Part shown: piece by piece, positions 4,986 through 61,931 of the stretch
How the letters are laid out: every line of letters begins with the position of its first letter
Position numbering within the stretch: the first letter of the stretch is position 1
Assembly (NCBI GenBank): GCA_964421125.1
Contig: CAYQVD010000002.1
Span: 13,579-77,578, forward strand
Direction: 5' to 3'
DNA from: an uncultured Bdellovibrionales bacterium
GTDB lineage: Bacteria > Patescibacteriota > Minisyncoccia > Moranbacterales > DUUL01
Length of the DNA stretch: 64,000 nt
Program-made: the position numbers and the translations under genes
The notes under the pieces: generated by a model
The model's input: the letters and a program-made list of their open reading frames with translations, nothing else
The model's database searches: none
Told to the model about the DNA's origin: nothing

Positions 4986-5561
4986 TTACTTTAATTTTGT
5001 TTCAGCAAAATTTTTTATTTCCAACCAACTATCCAAAGCGTCTGGTATGGAAAATTCAATGTGTTGCCCAATCATGGAAGTGTCTACGGTTCTCTGCTTC
5101 CATGACACCGAAATAATATCTTTCTTCAAAAGGTCAGATGGCCACTCACGCAAAATACCCCCTTCTTTATGTGAGCAAATATTTCAAATAATTCTCATAA
5201 ATTGAAACCATTGTTGCGCCTTATAAACTGGAAACTGATTCGTTTCATCACAATATTTCAAAATAATTTCATGTGATTCACGAAGAATAGATCTCATGAG
5301 ACTGGATTCAAATTCGGACAACATTAATTCTCTTCCATTTCTTGTTTTGTTTAACATGATATGGGAAATATCTCTTAAAGGCACTTCCAATAAAGTTTGA
5401 TCTGATCTTTTAAATTTAGCATTTTGTGTTGAAATTTCCATCCATTTCTGTTCAGGTATTATTCTAGTTGCTAAATTTCCAAATAAAAAATTATTTCGAA
5501 TATTTAATAAACTACCTAATAATTCAGCTTTTGTCATGCTTCTAAAATAAAAATATTTCAA
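4986..5561 (-). pseudogene. Hypothetical protein gene interrupted by an in-frame TGA at 5184..5186. Likely start at 5537 (MTKAELL).
   Basis: An N-terminal 117-aa ORF ends with TGA. A further 65 codons follow in the same frame (GGILREWPSDLLKKDIISVSWKQRTVDTSMIGQHIEFSIPDALDSWLEIKNFAETKLK) before a TAA. Confidence 0.45.
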
Positions 5562-5745
5562 CTACTTACCAAAGCAATCTTACAATCCGATCTAAGCTTT
5601 TAAAATACCAACTAAAAAACTATCCTATAGTTTCCCCTTCTTGCTAGAGCGAACTTGTAGTCCTGTTCATTAATTAGGCCTTAAAACAAATCTTTAAAAT
5701 TTCTAATTGAAAATTCACTGGAAATTAAAAAATTAAAAATGAAAA

Positions 5746-8058
5746 TTAATCTCTGATCTCCCCTTCCTCCCCAACCTGATCAAGCTGAACAGAAAGAAGT
5801 TGTGAGATTCCACCATCGTTCATGGAAACTCCATAGAGAACAGTAGCTTCTTTCATGGTTTGACGATTATGAGTGACAAGCACAAACTGGGTCTTATTTG
5901 AAAGTTGTCTTAAAATTTTTCCAAATCTTTTGGAATTTGCTTCGTCAAGTGATGCTTCAACTTCATCAAGAATTGCAAATGGTGGTGGATTATGAGAAAT
6001 AATTGCGAAAAGAAGTGCAATTGAAGTCAAAGCTCTTTCCCCACCAGAAAGCATCCCAAGATTAGAAATTTTCTTTCCTGGAGGACAAGCCTTAATCTCA
6101 ATTCCAATCTGAACATCATCCTCATCAATTTCCTCAACATCCAAATCAATTTCATTACCATGTTCATCTACTTCAACGTCTTTTCCGCTAGTTCTTTTTC
6201 TTATTTCAACCTTAACCAATTCTGCTTTTCCACCATCAAAAATAATTTTAAAATATTCTGCAAACTTTTTGTTAATATTCTCAAAAGTCTCTTCAAAGCT
6301 TCCCTTAATGTTATGATCCATCTCTTTAATGATCTTCCGAAGACTTTTAATTGCTTCTTCCAAATCTCCTGATTCTTTTGAAAGAAAATCATACCGCTCT
6401 TGTGTCTCTTGATATTCCTGCAAAATTGTTTCATCAATTGCTCCAACCTGTTCAAGTTGAAATTTGAGTCGCTCAATGGCATGTTCCCATTTGTTCACAT
6501 CAACATCGATGGTCTTTTTCTCAAGTTTTTCTGGACCAATCTTCATCTCTTTTTCAATTCGAATCTGCAAATCCTCTTCTCGAACCTCCAATTTCGCAAG
6601 CTCCAATTTATAATCGTTAAATTGATCCTTCACTTTTTCAGTCTCGAATTGTTTTCTTCGAAGTTGATCTTCCAACTTAATCATTTCTCGACGTTCATCT
6701 TGATCACTCTTAACAAGCTCATTAATTTTTTCACGAATCTTTTCTCTCTTGCCTTCAATTTCATTTCTTTCTTTTTCCAGTTTTTCAACTCCTGATTGCA
6801 TTACTGAAAGCCTTTTTTGTCCCTCTTCTTGAATTGCTCTCAATTTGTCCACTTGTTTTTTCTTTTCAATCTTTCCCTTAATCACTCCTTGATGAAGCTC
6901 TGAAAGATCAATTGATATTTTCTCTGCGTAATCTTTAAGCTCTTTCAAGTCTCCAATTTTTTTCAAGGCTGAGATTTTTTCAACCAATTGACCTTGTCTT
7001 TTTTGAAGATCTTCAAGTCTTGTCCTGATGAATCCTGCATCAACTGGAATTATTTCAATTACTTTAATTTCTTTCTGTCGCTCTTTTTCAAGCTCCATCT
7101 TTCCTTGTTCGATAATCAGTTTTCTTTCCAAATCATTTGAAAAATGATTCACTTTTCGTTCTTCTTCTTCAAGTTTTTGAATTTCCTCTTGATGATCAGC
7201 TTTATTCCCAGACTCTTTACTCAATTTGTCTTTAATTTCATCAATTTCTCGTTGATTTATCATAATCTGCTTAGAAAAATCATCCCTAATTCCAGAAGAC
7301 TGATTTTTTTCAGTTTGAATCTTATTCCAAAGAAAACCAAAAAATTCATTCTGTTTTCGTTTCAAATTTGCTCGATATTCATCGCCTTTTTCTGCCTTTT
7401 GGCTTTGACGACGAAGCGTGTTGAGATGTGGTTCAATTTCAATTAAAAGTCCCTTCACTCTTTCAATATTAACCTTGGTTAATCTCAGCTTCCTCTCACT
7501 TCGATCTTTTTTAATTTGATGCTCTTTCACTCCAGCGACTTCTTCAATCATCACCCGTCGCTCCACAGGAGTTGCATTCAAAACATGATCAGCCATTCCT
7601 TGATTGATGATACAATAACTTCGTTGGCCAATTCCAGCTTTTGCAAGCATATCAACAATATCTAAAAGTCGAACCTTACTTCCATTGATAAGATATTCAC
7701 TTTCTCCACTTCGATAAATCTTTCTTGAAATCACTAAGTCATCATAATCAATTGGAATTTTTTTGGAAGAGTTGTCCAAATACATTGAAACTTGAGCACT
7801 TCCTAATTGAGATTTCTTTCCTGATCCAGCAAAAATGATATCTTCAGACTTCTTTCCTCGTAAAGTTTTCATTGATTGCTCTCCCATAGACCATTTCAAA
7901 GCATCTGCAATATTTGATTTTCCAGATCCATTTGGTCCAACAATCGCCGTGATTCCAAGGGTTTTCCCATTACTCAAAACACCAGCTTTGGAAAAATCCA
8001 GAACTGTTTTCTTTGCAAATGATTTAAAACCGCTCATTTCAAGTTTTTTTAGAAACAT
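5746..8058 (-). CDS. smc: SMC-family chromosome segregation ATPase, unusually short at 770 aa.
   Basis: N-terminal Walker A GPNGSGKSN, a long coiled coil, then C-terminal LSGGERALTSIALLFAI and the D-loop AILDEVEASLD. Confidence 0.8.
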   Translation of the reverse strand: MFLKKLEMSGFKSFAKKTVLDFSKAGVLSNGKTLGITAIVGPNGSGKSNIADALKWSMGEQSMKTLRGKKSEDIIFAGSGKKSQLGSAQVSMYLDNSSKKIPIDYDDLVISRKIYRSGESEYLINGSKVRLLDIVDMLAKAGIGQRSYCIINQGMADHVLNATPVERRVMIEEVAGVKEHQIKKDRSERKLRLTKVNIERVKGLLIEIEPHLNTLRRQSQKAEKGDEYRANLKRKQNEFFGFLWNKIQTEKNQSSGIRDDFSKQIMINQREIDEIKDKLSKESGNKADHQEEIQKLEEEERKVNHFSNDLERKLIIEQGKMELEKERQKEIKVIEIIPVDAGFIRTRLEDLQKRQGQLVEKISALKKIGDLKELKDYAEKISIDLSELHQGVIKGKIEKKKQVDKLRAIQEEGQKRLSVMQSGVEKLEKERNEIEGKREKIREKINELVKSDQDERREMIKLEDQLRRKQFETEKVKDQFNDYKLELAKLEVREEDLQIRIEKEMKIGPEKLEKKTIDVDVNKWEHAIERLKFQLEQVGAIDETILQEYQETQERYDFLSKESGDLEEAIKSLRKIIKEMDHNIKGSFEETFENINKKFAEYFKIIFDGGKAELVKVEIRKRTSGKDVEVDEHGNEIDLDVEEIDEDDVQIGIEIKACPPGKKISNLGMLSGGERALTSIALLFAIISHNPPPFAILDEVEASLDEANSKRFGKILRQLSNKTQFVLVTHNRQTMKEATVLYGVSMNDGGISQLLSVQLDQVGEEGEIRD

Positions 8059-8102
8059 CTTCTTTTATTATTTTGAGATTTGATTTTTAAATTTTGATTT
8101 TC

Positions 8103-36829: not shown

Positions 36830-37711
36830 CTATTTCATATTTCTATTATATAACGTTAATGTATTTTTTAAAAGCATTGCAACTGTCACCGGACCAACCC
36901 CGCCAGGCACTGGTGTTATGAATCTTACTTTTTCTTCCGCTTCTTTAAAATTAACATCTCCTAAAATATCATCTCCCTCTTTTGTAATCCCTATATCAAT
37001 CACTACTGCATTTTCTTTAATCGTATCTCCACCAATGAACTCTGGGCGACCGACCGCCGAAATTAGAAGATCGGCCTTGATTGTTTTATTTTTCAACTCA
37101 GAATCATCTGCTTGGATCAAATCAATTTTTCCACCCCGACACTCAAGAACTTTAGCTAAACTTTTTCCGAAAATATCAGAATTTGAAACTACACAAACTT
37201 TTTTATCTTTCAAATCAAAATCAATATCCTCCAATATTTCAATCACAACCTGCAACACTGGCGGAATCACATCTTCATGGCTACACGTTTCCAACAGCTT
37301 TTTCAAGTTTTCTGGATGAAATCGATCAACATCTTTTTCTGGATCAATAGCTTTAATAATCCTGTCCGTATCAAGACCTTCCGGTAACGGCAACTGAACC
37401 AAAATCGCATCCACATCATCATCTTGATTTAAATATTCTATTGTTTTTATAATGTCCTCTTCCGACGCTTCTTGCGAACTTCGATAAACATTAATATTCA
37501 TCCCCACCTTCCTAGCTTCTTTTTCTTTCAATTTAACATAGAGTTTTGAATCCTCTCTTTCGCCAATCAAAACAATCGCAAGTCCTGGCATTCGTTTTCC
37601 TGCTTCTTGCAATTTAACAATTTCCCTTCTCGCTTCGCTACTAATCCTTTCAGCAATTTTCTTGCCATCAATAATCTTCGCTAATTTTTTTTTCATTTTT
37701 TTCATTAACAA
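36830..37711 (-). CDS. folD: Bifunctional methylene-THF dehydrogenase/cyclohydrolase.
   Basis: Signatures IIDGKKIA...GLAIVLIG... and PVPGGVGPVTVAMLL. Confidence 0.9.
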   Translation of the reverse strand: MLMKKMKKKLAKIIDGKKIAERISSEARREIVKLQEAGKRMPGLAIVLIGEREDSKLYVKLKEKEARKVGMNINVYRSSQEASEEDIIKTIEYLNQDDDVDAILVQLPLPEGLDTDRIIKAIDPEKDVDRFHPENLKKLLETCSHEDVIPPVLQVVIEILEDIDFDLKDKKVCVVSNSDIFGKSLAKVLECRGGKIDLIQADDSELKNKTIKADLLISAVGRPEFIGGDTIKENAVVIDIGITKEGDDILGDVNFKEAEEKVRFITPVPGGVGPVTVAMLLKNTLTLYNRNMK

Positions 37712-37762: not shown

Positions 37763-38095
37763 TTATTTTTCTTCAGAAACATTCCCAGACTCAATTAATT
37801 CTTGTATTAATTCTTTTTTTATTTTACCTGCTTCAATTTTTAAATCTTTTTTTAATTCATCAGAAACAGAACCTAGAAATTTTTTATACTTTTCAGCAGA
37901 TTTTAAATAATTGACCTCCTTTTCACTAAATTCATCTAAAACTTCTATGAAACTATTTATTCTTGAATCACTCAACTGATCAAGACTACTAATCACATAT
38001 TCTTGAAAACTTGGCGGGAGACCAGATAAAGATAATTTAAATATTAATTCAGCAATTTTGTTTTTTCGATCTTTCATTAAAATACACTTAATCAA
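37763..38095 (-). CDS. Hypothetical 110-aa acidic protein, third gene of the unknown operon.
   Basis: Its start abuts the upstream stop. Confidence 0.5.
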   Translation of the reverse strand: MIKCILMKDRKNKIAELIFKLSLSGLPPSFQEYVISSLDQLSDSRINSFIEVLDEFSEKEVNYLKSAEKYKKFLGSVSDELKKDLKIEAGKIKKELIQELIESGNVSEEK

Positions 38096-39439
38096 TTAAT
38101 TTCCCTTATAACCCAAGAAATCTGCGAGGTAATTCGCACCTTTCACCACTGAATCACTTTTTTCAACTAACTTTTCTTTCATTATTCCTTCTGTAGAGTC
38201 CAAGGCTCCAGTGGCTTTTTCTTTAACATAGTCCATTGCCCCTTCCTTAAGACGCTCTTTGCCAAGATCCCAAAGACTGTCCCATTCTTCTTGTATCCAT
38301 TGCATAACTGGAGCCATTTTCCCTTCTATATAATCTTCCCCTTCATGTATTTTCTCCGCTATAGGACCCCAAGTTCCCATTTTATCCATTCCAATCTTTG
38401 CCAAAGGCAAAGCTCCAAGCATAGTACAAACAACTGCCTTCATATATTTCCCATAGCCACCAAAGGCATCAACCAATTCCTTTTCTACTTCTTTGATTTT
38501 CTTATTATAAGAATCATTTTCCAATTTACCTTCCATGACTATTTTTAATTTTTGAGAGATAGCTTTAGTTATTTCTTCCTTTCCATTTTCTGAATTTGCC
38601 ATTTTCAACCATTTTCCTTCAACTTCTCCAGCAAAATCACCAAGTTTATTTTTGTAATAATTTTCTATACTTGAAATCATTTCTTCGGCAGTTTGATGAG
38701 ATAAATCTTCTATGAAAACATTATTTTCATCAAAAAGCTCTTTCTTCCCAGCTAAAATATTTTTTAAATTATTGAAATCTAAATTGTCCTTATATTCCAA
38801 CTCGAAGAGAGCAATATCTTCTGAAAGTTCTTTTAACTTTTGTTCATTTTCTTTTGGATTTTCTCTTAAGGCACTCAACTCAGATCTAAGATTGCAATAT
38901 TCCTCCATTTTCTCTTTTATATTTTCATCATTCAGGGAATTAATAAAAGACCTTTGAATCAGGTCATCAGATGTTTGTAAATTCTTGTAATCTTCATTTG
39001 AATCACGAACTGCAATATTTTTCCTAAGAGCATCAACCCAGGTTGGTGCTCCCAATAAAAAAACATTGCTAGAAATCTTTGAAAAGTTCTTACCTAAAAA
39101 AGTTGCAATCTTCGTTCCCTTTTCCACTGCTCCATTAATAATCCCTCCAAGATGAGCCGGCAGAATAAAACCAGTAACAAACTTTGAAGCAGCTGGAATA
39201 AGTTTATTGGCTACATCAGATTTAAAATCTAGATACTTTTCAAAAGCCTCCCATGACTTATCTCCCCCTTCCAATAACATCAAAAAACTATCTTCCTTAA
39301 ATTTGCCATAAATTTCTGACATTTTTTGTTTATCAAAAATATCAGAAATCTTTTCCAGCATTCCCTCTTCTTCTTTTTTTTCGTAAGCAAAATTTTTATT
39401 ATCCAAGGCTATCTCACCTCCAGAAATCTTGTTTCTCAT
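38096..39439 (-). CDS. Hypothetical 447-aa protein with no recognisable catalytic motif.
   Basis: Long clean ORF, K/E-rich. Sits 8 nt after the upstream gene. Confidence 0.55.
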   Translation of the reverse strand: MRNKISGGEIALDNKNFAYEKKEEEGMLEKISDIFDKQKMSEIYGKFKEDSFLMLLEGGDKSWEAFEKYLDFKSDVANKLIPAASKFVTGFILPAHLGGIINGAVEKGTKIATFLGKNFSKISSNVFLLGAPTWVDALRKNIAVRDSNEDYKNLQTSDDLIQRSFINSLNDENIKEKMEEYCNLRSELSALRENPKENEQKLKELSEDIALFELEYKDNLDFNNLKNILAGKKELFDENNVFIEDLSHQTAEEMISSIENYYKNKLGDFAGEVEGKWLKMANSENGKEEITKAISQKLKIVMEGKLENDSYNKKIKEVEKELVDAFGGYGKYMKAVVCTMLGALPLAKIGMDKMGTWGPIAEKIHEGEDYIEGKMAPVMQWIQEEWDSLWDLGKERLKEGAMDYVKEKATGALDSTEGIMKEKLVEKSDSVVKGANYLADFLGYKGN

Positions 39440-39447
39440 AGCACAAC

Positions 39448-39873
39448 TTAATTAATTTGTCCCTTCTTTTTTGCGTCCTTCAATTCTCTTTCTAAAGAAT
39501 CTTTTTTGATTTTATCCCAATCTATATTCTCCATAATCCTTTTCTCCACAGCATCAAAATCAATTTCAGGCCCCTTTTTTCTACTATCCAAAGCTGAAGA
39601 AGTTAATCCGATCCAATAATTATTAGGAATTCTATTTTTTATATCATCTGATGAAGCACTTCCTCCTTTCTCTTTAAAAACATCTTCTTCAACCTTCATA
39701 TACTCATCATAAGCGCTTTGAATTTTATCCTTTTCTTCTTGTGAATTAGCTACTTCTAAAACAGCCTCTAGAATTACTTCCTGAGTTTCAATAAAAGCCT
39801 TTCTTGCTTCATTAGATCCATCAAGATTCTCTTGATAGTTTAACATATTTTTTACAAATTTGTCTTCTGACAT
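39448..39873 (-). CDS. Hypothetical 141-aa acidic protein, first gene of the unknown operon.
   Basis: Clean ORF. Confidence 0.5.
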   Translation of the reverse strand: MSEDKFVKNMLNYQENLDGSNEARKAFIETQEVILEAVLEVANSQEEKDKIQSAYDEYMKVEEDVFKEKGGSASSDDIKNRIPNNYWIGLTSSALDSRKKGPEIDFDAVEKRIMENIDWDKIKKDSLERELKDAKKKGQIN

Positions 39874-39981
39874 TTTTTTATATTAATAATTTAATCCTCA
39901 ATCTTATATCTTTTCCCACTAATAATTACTTCTCCACCACGATGCATGTTTTCTAACTTATTTACATTATCATCCTTATTT

Positions 39982-40608
39982 TTAATTTCTTTCCAAACTA
40001 AATTCAATTAATCTTTTTTTGACCACTTCGTCGTCTATTTCAAATCCAGATAGATATTCGACTTCTTCGTCATAATTTACGTCTTCAAAATAAATTAAAG
40101 CCTCACGAAATATCCTTTCATTGAATTCACCTTCAAATATTTTTTTCGCTCGCTCAACAATTTTTTTTATAGAATGATATTTATTTATTATAAAATACAA
40201 ATCGACATAATCTTTCCATTTTGCCCTACGCCTAAGTGCAAAAGCTTTCATCGCACCTAAAGTCAAAAGATCTGGCATTCTTAGAAAATCTTCTAAATTT
40301 TTAGAAAAATCTAAAGCATATGGATAATTAAAAAAAGTGAATTGAACATTATCAATAAAAAAAGTATACTGATCATCTTCATCTTTATACACTTTACCGA
40401 TTTTTCAGCCTTCTTTTTTTATCACTCGTCTAATTTTAGTGCTTTCAAATTCTTTCAATGAAAATAAATCAAAATCAATTGAACGTCGATGTCCAATTTG
40501 CAAGGCAATGGCTGTTCCACCCACCAATCCAAAATTCTTAATAAATTTCTTTACTAACAATAATAATTCTATTTGCTTCTTGGTCAAAATTTCTTTATGC
40601 ATGGGCAT
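39982..40608 (-). pseudogene. AbiEii/DUF1814-type nucleotidyltransferase split by a frameshift in an A7/T7 tract at about 40414-40420.
   Basis: N-terminal piece (40405..40608) carries GGTAIALQIGHRRSIDFDLF. The C-terminal piece (39982..40392) continues the DUF1814 fold. The two frames differ by 1 nt at a homopolymer. Confidence 0.6.
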
Positions 40609-40858
40609 TGAAATATAGTGTAAAATAATGTTTCGTTCTTTTATGATAATTTTGTCTTCCCATTTTTGATGGCTGAGATTTTTCACGAAAAATCCTGGCC
40701 ACTTCTTTAATGCCCAAAATTTTAATGAGTGTTTGCACATCATCCCAATCGCCATAATTCAAAGTGGCCTCCACAATTGATTCTGGTCCGAGTTTGTCAT
40801 AATCCTTTACCCACCAAATCAAATGCTTTCTTTTTTTTATAAAATCATGAATATCCAC
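40595..40858 (-). CDS. Small 87-aa protein directly upstream of the AbiEii-like gene. It is a candidate cognate antitoxin or partner.
   Basis: Position and 12-nt spacing from the nucleotidyltransferase start. Confidence 0.45.
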   Translation of the reverse strand: MDIHDFIKKRKHLIWWVKDYDKLGPESIVEATLNYGDWDDVQTLIKILGIKEVARIFREKSQPSKMGRQNYHKRTKHYFTLYFNAHA

Positions 40859-40921
40859 ACAGCTATTTTAGCATAATTAAAGCCCTAAATCAAAAAATTA
40901 ATCCTGAAATTATGACCGATT

Positions 40922-42169
40922 CTAAACACTCGGAATTGGAAATTCTGTGCAAAGTTTTTTTATTGCTTCTTTAACAGATTTCAACTCCTCTTCATTCTCA
41001 CGATTCATAATCGCCTTGTCAATTAACTCTGTAACTTTTTTTATTTCTTCCTCTTTCATGCCACGAGAAGTTGCAGCTGCTGTTCCGAAACGAACCCCAG
41101 AAGGATTCATTGGTGGATTTGGATCATTGGGAATTGTTGATCGACTCACAGAGATTCCAACTTTTTCAAGAACTTGTTCAGCTTCTTTTCCGCTCACTCC
41201 TTTGCTAGTCATGTCAGCCACAAAAAGATGATTGTCAGTTCCTCCAGAAATCACTCGATAACCTCTATCGATAAAATCTTCTGCCATTGTTTGTGCATTT
41301 AAAATAACTTGTTTTGCATAAACTTTAAAATCATCTTTCAAAACTTCGCCAAAAGCCACGGCCTTGGCAGCTGTAATGTGATCATGCGGTCCACCCTGCA
41401 TTCCAGGAAAAACTGCTCGATCAACTTGTTTAGCAAATTTCTCTTTACACATAATCATCGCTCCTCTTGGTCCTCGAAGAGTTTTGTGAGTGGTCGTTGA
41501 AACAACATCAAAAATCGGCACTGGATTCGCCATCTCTCCTGTCGCAATTAAACCAGCAGTATGAGCAATGTCAGCAAAAGTGAACGCTCCAATCTCATCA
41601 GCAATTTCTTGAAATTTTTCCCATTCAATTTCTCTTGAATAAGCACTATACCCAGCCACAATCATTTTTGGTTTTTCTTTCAGTGCAATTTCTCGAACTT
41701 TTGCCATATCAATTTTTCCAGTCTCTGAATCAACTTCGTATTGAACAAAATTATAAAGCATTCCAGAAAAATTCACTGGATGACCATGAGAAAGATGCCC
41801 ACCATGATCAAGTTTCAATCCCATCACTTTGTCTCCTGGCTTCAAAAATGCAAAATAAACCGCCGCATTGGCCGGAGAACCAGAAAGTGGCTGAACATTG
41901 ACATGCTCGGCATTAAAAAGCTTTTTTGCTCGATCAATTGCAATATTTTCTACTATATCAATCACTTGATTTCCTCCATAATATCGATGTCCTGGATACC
42001 CCTCACTGTATTTGTTTGTCAAAACTGTTCCCATTGCCTCCAAAACTGCCTTCGAAACATAATTCTCCGAAGCAATTAATTCCAGCTCATTAATTTGACG
42101 CTCCTCTTCCAGTTCCACCGCGTCCATTATCTCCTTATCCTCCTGCTCTAAATTTTGATAACTTGGCAT
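40922..42169 (-). CDS. glyA: Serine hydroxymethyltransferase.
   Basis: SHMT core including YSEGYPGHRYYGG, with PLP-binding lysine context. Confidence 0.9.
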   Translation of the reverse strand: MPSYQNLEQEDKEIMDAVELEEERQINELELIASENYVSKAVLEAMGTVLTNKYSEGYPGHRYYGGNQVIDIVENIAIDRAKKLFNAEHVNVQPLSGSPANAAVYFAFLKPGDKVMGLKLDHGGHLSHGHPVNFSGMLYNFVQYEVDSETGKIDMAKVREIALKEKPKMIVAGYSAYSREIEWEKFQEIADEIGAFTFADIAHTAGLIATGEMANPVPIFDVVSTTTHKTLRGPRGAMIMCKEKFAKQVDRAVFPGMQGGPHDHITAAKAVAFGEVLKDDFKVYAKQVILNAQTMAEDFIDRGYRVISGGTDNHLFVADMTSKGVSGKEAEQVLEKVGISVSRSTIPNDPNPPMNPSGVRFGTAAATSRGMKEEEIKKVTELIDKAIMNRENEEELKSVKEAIKKLCTEFPIPSV

Positions 42170-61115: not shown

Positions 61116-61931
61116 TTAAAGTGGACTTTTAATATTCTTTAGTTTCGGATTTGTTACTTTAGTATAAATTTGTGTTGTTCTAATATTAGCATGACCAAGT
61201 AATTCTTGAACATATCTCACATCAGTTCCATTTTCAAGTAAATGCGTCGCAAAACTGTGTCGAAGTGAATGAAACGTCGCAGATTTTTTTATCCTTGATC
61301 TAATAAGTGCTACATGAAAAACTTTCTGCAATGAAGTAGTTGTTAATTTCCCTCCACGATTACTTTCGAATAAAAAATCGCCCCCATTCTTTCCTAAAAT
61401 CAAAGATTGAATTTCTTCCTTTATTTTTTCAGGAAAAACCGTAATTCGATCTTTTTTCCCTTTGGCATTTTTAATATGAATTATCAATTCTGCTAAGTCA
61501 ACATCTTTCACTTTTAAACTAACAACTTCACTCACCCTAAGACCAGCAGCATATCCCAATGAAACCATTAATTTATGCTTCAAATTTTTGATTTCGTTTA
61601 TAATTTTTTCAATCTCCCCTCTTGATAAAACAACTGGCAATTTTTGACTTCTCTTGGCACATTTAAAGTCAATCTTTTCTTTCAGTTTCAGAACTTCATA
61701 ATATAAAAATTTAACAGAATTCAATGCTAGATTAATTGTTTGAGAAGAATTTCCTTGTTTTTGTCTTTCTAATAAAAAATTTTCAATGGCCTTATTTCTA
61801 TCTTTGATATTTTCTTGCTTAGAAAAATTCAAATATTCTTTTATGTAGAATAAGTAAGCCTTTATTGTCTTTTGACTATAATTTCTTAATTTAAGTAAAT
61901 TTTCTGTTTTTTCTAGAATTGAAGATTGCAT
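61116..61931 (-). CDS. Tyrosine-type site-specific recombinase/integrase (XerC/XerD-like, short).
   Basis: C-terminal catalytic motif HSLRHSFATHLLENG...LLGH...TQIYT. Confidence 0.8.
   Translation of the reverse strand: MQSSILEKTENLLKLRNYSQKTIKAYLFYIKEYLNFSKQENIKDRNKAIENFLLERQKQGNSSQTINLALNSVKFLYYEVLKLKEKIDFKCAKRSQKLPVVLSRGEIEKIINEIKNLKHKLMVSLGYAAGLRVSEVVSLKVKDVDLAELIIHIKNAKGKKDRITVFPEKIKEEIQSLILGKNGGDFLFESNRGGKLTTTSLQKVFHVALIRSRIKKSATFHSLRHSFATHLLENGTDVRYVQELLGHANIRTTQIYTKVTNPKLKNIKSPL

Follow-up and report, generated by a model that had tools for sequence, protein, structure and literature searches.

The window analysed here is a stretch of 64,000 nucleotides (nt) from contig CAYQVD010000002.1 of an uncultured bacterium of the Patescibacteriota. 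At 39982..40858 on its minus strand lies a two-gene locus, in which a small gene encoding 87 amino acids (aa) precedes and overlaps a putative nucleotidyltransferase (NTase) gene interrupted by a single stop codon. The locus itself is genuine. Its initial annotation gave the open reading frames (ORFs), the span 39982-40858 and the NTase signature motif correctly, and recognized that the NTase gene is broken and that its N-terminal ORF ends at 40405 (TGA, 40407..40405). The account of the break as a frameshift, however, was a misreading. The locus comprises the following features:

39982..40608, minus strand: NTase reading frame, MenT/AbiEii family; 208 codons plus TAA in a single-frame translation, with one interruption at codon 68
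40405..40407, minus strand: in-frame TGA at codon 68, the sole lesion; TGG (Trp) in the closest homologs
40414..40420, minus strand: A7 tract (T7 on the plus strand), read as ATA AAA AAA GAA (I-K-K-E), outside the lesion
39982..40392, minus strand: separately called downstream ORF of 136 aa, GTG start 12 nt past the TGA, same frame
40462..40521, minus strand: Pol-beta-type motifs I/II, G30 G31 ... H40 R41 x S43 x D45 x D47, 5' of the stop; the signature GGTAIALQIGHRRSIDFDLF (NTase residues 30-49)
40201..40248, minus strand: family-specific motifs III/IV, K121 ... K130 W K D Y V D136, 3' of the stop
40595..40608, minus strand: overlap ATGCCCATGCATAA between the partner stop and the NTase start, 14 nt for the ATG at 40608 and 8 nt for the ATG at 40602
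40595..40858, minus strand: 87-aa partner, putative antitoxin or regulator, predicted all-helical; GTG start at 40858, TAA stop at 40597..40595
40865..40893, minus strand: sigma-70-like hexamers TTGATT-17-TAAAAT with TG, a possible operon promoter from a consensus scan, in the 63-nt spacer between glyA and the partner gene

The two NTase pieces in the ORF list (40405..40755 and 39982..40392) lie in one frame, since the offset between them (40755-40392 = 363 = 121 x 3) is divisible by three; the C-terminal half does not resume in another frame, as had been stated. Translation of 40608..39982 on the minus strand in this single frame contains exactly one internal stop (...IRRVIKKEG*KIGKVYKDEDDQ...), and the peptide immediately around it reads ...RRVIKKEG*KIGKVYKDEDD.... 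The fused protein is 206-208 aa long, and not 250 aa as first given. In a codon-wise comparison, codon 68 is TGG in the homologs P0001, P0002, P0003 and P0009, and AGG in P0004. By this comparison, the lesion is a single G-to-A transition, TGG to TGA.

The break had been placed at the seven-base homopolymer, regarded as a slippery site or an error hotspot, and a phase-variable or programmed-frameshift toxin had been proposed on this basis. The run indeed exists at 40414-40420, 7 nt upstream of the stop. However, it encodes a conserved Lys-Lys pair, and ATA AAA AAA GAA occurs with the same sequence, length and phase in the intact P0001, P0002 and P0003, the sole difference being the TGG-to-TGA change two codons on. 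The alignment of the fused protein to the intact-homolog profile covers its whole length with zero indels, and a shift at the A7 tract would destroy the shared frame rather than restore it. A frameshift at this site, whether phase-variable or programmed, thus retains next to no probability, and a nonsense substitution takes its place. The proposed check of reads for an A6 or A8 tract, as the sign of an assembly error, loses its point, since the frame needs no indel to be continuous.

A sequencing or assembly artefact, with TGG as the true codon and an intact gene, would require that only one base be wrong, and all the assemblies that contain the locus are short-read metagenome assemblies. Nevertheless, the locus including the TGA is 100% identical in ERZ27316756, ERZ27316679, ERZ27317826, Logan SRR8862237 and JGI 3300031657, that is, in five read sets processed through at least three pipelines (ENA k141 assemblies, Logan and JGI), and the altered base lies outside the homopolymer. 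Since the same allele occurs in five datasets, an assembly error was rejected, and an artefact of any kind is extremely unlikely. The TGA allele is fixed in the sampled population; the samples may share related sites, so this fixation does not imply age. P0248 and P0256, considered as a second strain, were discarded as GTG-as-Val translations of the same allele.

The partner gene had been described as ending 12 nt before the NTase start, whereas its stop codon actually overlaps that start, by 14 or 8 nt. The ATG at 40602 is the start used by most homologs, and an overlap of 4-10 nt is found in most related loci (8 nt in the gene calls of locus L006). This arrangement suggests that the partner and the NTase may be translationally coupled. 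The start codon of the partner is GTG in the window (40856..40858, minus strand) and ATG in the relatives P0003, P0004 and P0009. The consensus scan that provided the promoter candidate returned 10 sites, against 6.0 +/- 2.5 in shuffled sequences, which is not significant. At the other end of the locus, the NTase gene overlaps at its 3' end with a TTG-start ORF of 38 aa (39891..40007, minus strand), which matches no family, is uncalled in every source assembly and is probably spurious.

The nucleotidyltransferase and its helical partner

The assignment of the interrupted gene to the AbiEii/DUF1814-type NTases is upheld by profile searches. Residues 24-175 of the fused protein, on both sides of the stop, match the Pfam AbiEii model PF08843 with E = 3.3e-10 and a score of 40.8 bits (cut-off 22.5), and six PADLOC AbiEii models match with E values of 2.6e-5 to 0.03. 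A database search yielded 7,875 homologs, which carry a precomputed PF08843 assignment and the best of which is 86% identical over its full length. Nearly all are uninterrupted proteins of 204-208 aa; the window NTase, with TGA at codon 68, lacks an uninterrupted full-length coding sequence. The named sources of the homologs are Parcubacteria, Falkowbacteria, Kuenenbacteria, Azambacteria and other Patescibacteria, and the subfamily as a whole runs to thousands of sequences; these derive from at least 568 species-level genomes, nearly all patescibacterial.

The catalytic motifs of the family are distributed on both sides of the stop. G30, G31, S43, D45 and D47 of motifs I/II are present in the window NTase and invariant in two alignments (A1 and A3; 25 and 30 sequences), in which motifs III/IV are invariant as well. 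Motifs I/II, of the form hG[GS] ... [ST]xDxD, bind metal and nucleotide, and the residues T39/D41 of MenT1 and S78/D80 of MenT3 are needed for toxicity (PMC7450476, PMC10435456). Judging from the motif rather than from a superposition, S43/D45 would correspond to these residue pairs. The spacing between K121 and D136 is 15 residues, the same as that between K137 and D152 of MenT1. On the grounds of this spacing and of conservation, again rather than of superposition, K121/D136 would be the counterparts of MenT1 K137/D152 and MenT3 K189/D211. The D80A, K189A and D211A variants of MenT3 lose toxicity (PMC7450476, PMC10435456).

A search of the PDB sequences with the NTase family profile gave zero matches, and the fold was examined through a model of the 86%-identical homolog P0001. 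Its AlphaFold model has a predicted local distance difference test score (pLDDT) of 89.2 and a predicted template modelling score (pTM) of 0.85, and displays the bi-lobed MenT fold. The top Foldseek matches in the PDB are MenT1 (8an5/8an4), JHP933 (4ok0/4o8s), MenT4 (6y56) and MenT3 (6y5u), all with a probability of 1.00 and template modelling (TM) scores of 0.5-0.6. The 67-aa product that ends at the TGA contains motifs I/II, but lacks most of the beta-sheet core as well as the Lys and Asp of motifs III/IV. Because the stop splits the catalytic motifs, this product should be inactive. Taken together, the NTase belongs by descent to the DUF1814/AbiEii/MenT toxin family, but is probably not functional.

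In the P0001 model, codon 68 falls in a surface loop between the helix formed by residues 55-64 and the strand formed by residues 72-76, and the corresponding alignment column is variable and indel-prone among homologs. A break between secondary-structure elements could in principle yield a split toxin, in which translation stops at the TGA and re-initiates at the GTG at 40392, and the resulting 67-aa and 136-aa pieces come together again as an enzyme that is active or subject to regulation. Located in frame and 12 nt past the stop, this GTG could permit re-initiation, and the 136-aa product is called on its own by the gene callers in all source assemblies. In contrast, no recognisable ribosome-binding site precedes this GTG, which is the conserved Val codon of ...GKVYKDE..., and none of approximately 165 other family loci is split at this position. 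Since fragment complementation of a Pol-beta core is itself speculative, we consider a split enzyme highly unlikely.

The 87-aa ORF at 40858..40595 was noted earlier as a small protein in the position of an antitoxin but unlike a canonical AbiEi, and both points hold, the former by synteny and the latter by searches with AbiEi models. Its 679 database homologs (70-92% identity) are all annotated as hypothetical and have no Pfam domain on record. The identity to the nearest relative is higher for the partner (92%) than for the toxin (86%). The AlphaFold model of the partner (pLDDT 92.6, pTM 0.83) is a compact single domain of six helices. None of the AbiEi models in Pfam and PADLOC matches the partner at E values up to 1; the protein is too short for a winged-helix-turn-helix AbiEi/COG5340 antitoxin, and its all-helical single domain differs from that architecture. 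A Foldseek search of its model against the PDB, which includes the MenT1 entry 8an5, found no match with E below 2 (best E 2.3). Sub-threshold matches to DUF6922 (PF21956) were obtained from all 32 of the 32 partner homologs sampled, with a best E of 2e-5, and the window partner itself, which has no other Pfam match, scores 16.7 bits, below the gathering cut-off of 27. The partner is therefore probably a distant relative of DUF6922. The likeness is confined to the C-terminal part of the 52-residue model, and the link adds no functional information; nothing published on DUF6922 was found in the literature.

MenAT1 of Mycobacterium tuberculosis (Rv0078B-Rv0078A) is among the closest characterized systems. 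MenT1 is the best structural match of the P0001 model (8an5/8an4; Foldseek E 2e-6, probability 1.00), the toxins are similar in size (approximately 190-206 aa), and they share the Ser/Thr-x-Asp motif and the Lys...Asp spacing of 15. In both cases, a short protein is encoded immediately upstream, namely MenA1 of 68 aa and the partner of 87 aa; the latter is co-conserved with its NTase. The differences are nonetheless substantial. The toxins are only about 16% identical, with no sequence-level match in the PDB, and tRNA activity is predicted here. MenA1 is a V-shaped two-helix peptide, unrelated to the compact six-helix fold of the partner, and the window toxin has a premature TGA. AbiE (AbiEi-AbiEii of Streptococcus agalactiae and Lactococcus) shares with the locus the PF08843 and PADLOC AbiEii matches and a bicistronic organization with the toxin second. 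However, the AbiEi protein (COG5340, winged helix-turn-helix) has no equivalent here, and the window toxin is approximately 90 residues shorter than AbiEii. JHP933 of Helicobacter pylori and other stand-alone DUF1814 NTases have the same fold (4ok0/4o8s, TM approximately 0.57, probability 1.00) at 16-19% identity, but no conserved small upstream partner has been described for JHP933.

MenA1 provides a precedent for short, non-AbiEi antitoxins in the MenT toxin family (PMC10435456). Strict synteny, the gene overlap and the stronger conservation of the partner suggest that the partner may neutralize the toxin. As judged from its sequence and predicted fold, it would constitute an undescribed type for the AbiEii/MenT family, unrelated to AbiEi, MenA1 and the MenA3 kinase. 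The partner may thus represent a further route of control for MenT/AbiEii toxins, in organisms with very few known defence systems.

Conservation of the pair and nonsense alleles in the family

The partner gene lies directly upstream of the NTase gene in 79 of 80 loci from species-representative genomes and in 76 of 80 metagenome loci, with every exception located at a contig edge. The genes that flank the pair vary by genome, with glyA in the window and thioredoxin reductase in the closest relatives. Because the neighbours differ and the three genes downstream of the window pair are without counterparts, the partner and the NTase together are, as far as gene order indicates, the conserved and mobile unit. 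The downstream genes, encoding proteins of 141, 447 and 110 aa, were considered as further members of the module and rejected for their lack of homologs in related loci.

The NTase gene is intact in all 84 other family loci of one set and in 76 of 80 of a second. Across the approximately 165 other family loci, two are interrupted by nonsense codons and the rest are intact. In locus L169 (1263..1871), TAA replaces the invariant Gln of V-Q-FTFF (CAA to TAA), while locus L079 (2995..3597) has TAG near residue 157. With the TGA of the window, the nonsense alleles of the family comprise all three stop codons, which indicates that sporadic knock-out of the toxin is a normal fate in this family.

The family evolves under strong purifying selection, with ratios of nonsynonymous to synonymous substitution rates (dN/dS) of 0.03-0.11. 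The changes private to the window alleles are unevenly distributed between the two genes. The partner has zero amino-acid and four synonymous changes, whereas the toxin has six replacements (including P17L, G127R and P188S) and two synonymous changes. The resulting replacement-to-synonymous counts of 6:2 and 0:4 give a one-sided Fisher estimate of approximately 0.03, a hint of relaxed constraint on the toxin; the broader comparison with 120 intact homologs revealed no excess of deviations.

Stop-codon use and the reading of the TGA allele

Stop-codon use was surveyed in the window together with 16 kb of flanking sequence (L092 1-8431 and L094 1-7931), which form an 80.4-kb stretch in contig k141_86050 of ERZ27316756. 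This stretch contains 82 ORFs of at least 60 aa, of which 60 end in TAA, 20 in TAG and two in TGA; the two TGA cases are both interrupted genes. Out of frame, TGA trinucleotides are frequent on the contig. As a stop, TGA accounts for approximately 8-17% in related loci of low-GC (guanine plus cytosine) Patescibacteria, and for 4 of 17 in a close relative. At a pooled usage of 8-10%, the absence of TGA from the 80 intact ORFs has a probability of approximately 1e-4 to 1e-3, a figure that is optimistic given the variation between species. Within the window, the in-frame codons include 138 TGG and 1,238 Gly codons, and no housekeeping gene contains an in-frame TGA. The entire 80.4 kb, amounting to approximately 23,700 codons, has two in-frame TGA, 175 TGG, 885 Arg and 1,556 Gly codons. 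Neither tRNA genes nor release-factor genes, including that of release factor 2 (RF2), occur in this stretch.

The second TGA interrupts a gene at the other end of the window:

4986..5561, minus strand: second interrupted gene, called as a 125-aa ORF; TGA at 5186..5184, with the frame open for 66 more codons
4063..4803, minus strand: Zeta-toxin gene (Pfam E 1.9e-29), directly downstream of the second interrupted gene

Homologs of 183 aa span the junction in the second gene, and the TGA occupies the position of an invariant Arg in RI[IM]-R-N-T-x-S-H-K, an Rx4H motif; in one homolog this Arg is encoded by CGA. The gene has weak family matches at the Rx4H motif (Abi_2, E 0.017; RNase 2-5A, E 0.09; PADLOC AbiD, E 0.0027) and no match in the PDB, which makes its assignment to the HEPN type a tentative one. 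The second TGA fits a pattern in which dispensable toxic genes are knocked out by GC-to-AT transitions.

We consider it rather likely that the allele represents a recent loss of function, or a strong knock-down, of the toxin with retention of the partner, and hence an early stage of toxin-antitoxin decay. This reading is favoured because the nearest homologs encode codon 68 as TGG, the rest of the family is intact apart from sporadic nonsense alleles, the housekeeping genes are free of TGA and the partner gene is undamaged. The initial annotation, which had offered a decaying abortive-infection or toxin-antitoxin locus as one possibility, came close to this explanation with respect to decay, although not with respect to a frameshift as its cause. 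In its intact form, the module would consist of the 87-aa helical partner followed by the overlapping NTase of approximately 206 aa. By analogy with MenT1, MenT3 and MenT4, the intact NTase would add nucleotides to tRNA 3' ends and so halt protein synthesis, with the co-translated partner keeping the enzyme in check. A single G-to-A transition would then have turned the Trp codon 68 into TGA, so that termination would yield the 67-aa fragment, abolish or strongly reduce toxin activity and leave the partner orphaned. As a single locus, a toxin gene knocked out by a nonsense codon is unremarkable, and the toxin family is already known.

Several observations weigh against a simple knock-out. The first concerns the good preservation of the gene. 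The toxin deviates at 2 of 76 conserved columns, and 30 of 120 intact homologs are equally bad, so there is no excess of unusual residues; comparison with the nearest relative gives a dN/dS of 0.11 for the whole gene and 0.10 for the part that follows the stop. There is no second stop and no indel, and thus no decay besides the TGA. Since the toxin is otherwise undecayed, its inactivation must be recent, or the gene is still expressed. Scans of metagenomes and genomes found no sister allele between 86% and 100% identity, which leaves the mutation undated. The TGA also lies in a loop of variable sequence, which should accept whatever residue is inserted there. The second concern is the use of stop codons. 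TGA ends none of the 80 intact ORFs in the 80.4 kb (TAA 60, TAG 20), and both in-frame stops being TGA has a probability of approximately 0.07-0.09 under random nonsense mutation. TGA-free terminators together with two TGA interruptions suggest that UGA may not be an ordinary terminator in this organism.

These observations can be accommodated by a leaky stop, a less likely but appreciable alternative. In this case, a near-cognate tRNA would read through the TGA at low frequency to produce a little full-length toxin, and the codon would act as an attenuator of expression. UGA followed by A is a weak termination context, known from Escherichia coli, and is the classic site of readthrough by tRNA-Trp. 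The context in the window is GGC UGA AAA, with A after the stop, and the ancestral residue is Trp, so readthrough by tRNA-Trp would restore the native protein. The tolerant loop and the otherwise pristine toxin gene agree with this explanation, and avoidance of TGA as a terminator would be expected were UGA termination inefficient. However, a recent mutation would leave the sequence just as pristine. The TAA and TAG alleles in the family demonstrate that plain knock-outs happen, and the second TGA replaces a conserved Arg in a putative catalytic motif, where Trp would not restore function.

A more radical explanation, which we regard as distinctly unlikely, is that UGA does not terminate translation in this organism. 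RF2 would have been lost and UGA left unassigned or newly captured as Trp or conceivably Arg, so that both toxin-like genes would be fully translated. It would account for the 0 of 80 intact ORFs that end in a codon common out of frame, and for the finding that TGA is the codon at each of the only two in-frame stops. A reading as Arg would suit either site, as this residue is found at NTase position 68 in P0004, P0005, P0006 and P0008 and is invariant at the second site. The nearest homologs, however, imply Trp at one site and Arg at the other. In addition, two TGAs in approximately 23,700 codons are far fewer than a settled reassignment at 33% GC would give, and both are confined to dispensable toxin-like genes, with none in housekeeping genes. 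The variation in stop usage from species to species means that the pooled baseline inflates the significance of TGA avoidance, and the 80 kb contains no tRNA or release-factor gene that could bear on the matter. According to a 2026 review, UGA recoding in Patescibacteria is reported only in Gracilibacteria/JAEDAM01, as Gly (PMC13293708). A literature search on Patescibacteria, RF2 and UGA outside code 25 found nothing.

The code-25 Gracilibacteria and Absconditabacteria belong to the same phylum and resemble the present contig in their low GC and in the absence of TGA-terminated genes, which extends over 80.4 kb here. Code-25 genomes, in contrast, contain numerous in-frame TGAs where Gly is conserved, while the contig has two, of Trp/Arg type and outside the housekeeping genes. 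An established code 4 or code 25 was rejected because no further in-frame TGA occurs at Trp or Gly codons. Selenocysteine was rejected without a dedicated test, as the homologs have W, R, Y, F or H, never Cys, at this site in an indel-prone loop. Should TGA-free termination extend to the whole genome, it would be informative about the onset of stop-codon reassignment. If UGA is truly non-terminating, this organism would provide a second, independent and early-stage case of UGA recoding in the phylum, outside the Gracilibacteria; translation through UGA would perhaps be slow, making the codon a built-in throttle on toxic proteins.

Neighbouring genes

The pair forms part of a block of approximately 3.1 kb (37763..40858, minus strand) flanked by glyA (40922..42169) and folD (36830..37711), which also holds the hypothetical genes for the 141-, 447- and 110-aa proteins. 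These three genes have no Pfam match and no counterparts in related loci. The GC content of the block is 0.30-0.32, compared with 0.36-0.39 in the flanking genes, and the block looks like an inserted islet.

Two observations concern the surroundings of the pair in relatives. One strain of a close relative carries, just upstream of the pair, a cassette (loci L097/L006, approximately 5333..8080) that encodes a reverse transcriptase (RVT_1), a bAvd-like protein and a Y1-transposase-like protein; the cassette is missing from the otherwise syntenic locus L098 and resembles a diversity-generating retroelement. A hypothetical gene for 715 aa in L098 (2241..4388) corresponds to two calls (83 and 482 aa) in the syntenic L099 (2724..4375), which may represent another disrupted gene in a relative. 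Further along the window, a tyrosine recombinase gene (61116..61931, minus strand) with Phage_integrase and SAM-like N-terminal domains adjoins lepA and the ATP synthase operon; its product is probably an XerC/D-type housekeeping enzyme rather than a marker of a prophage.

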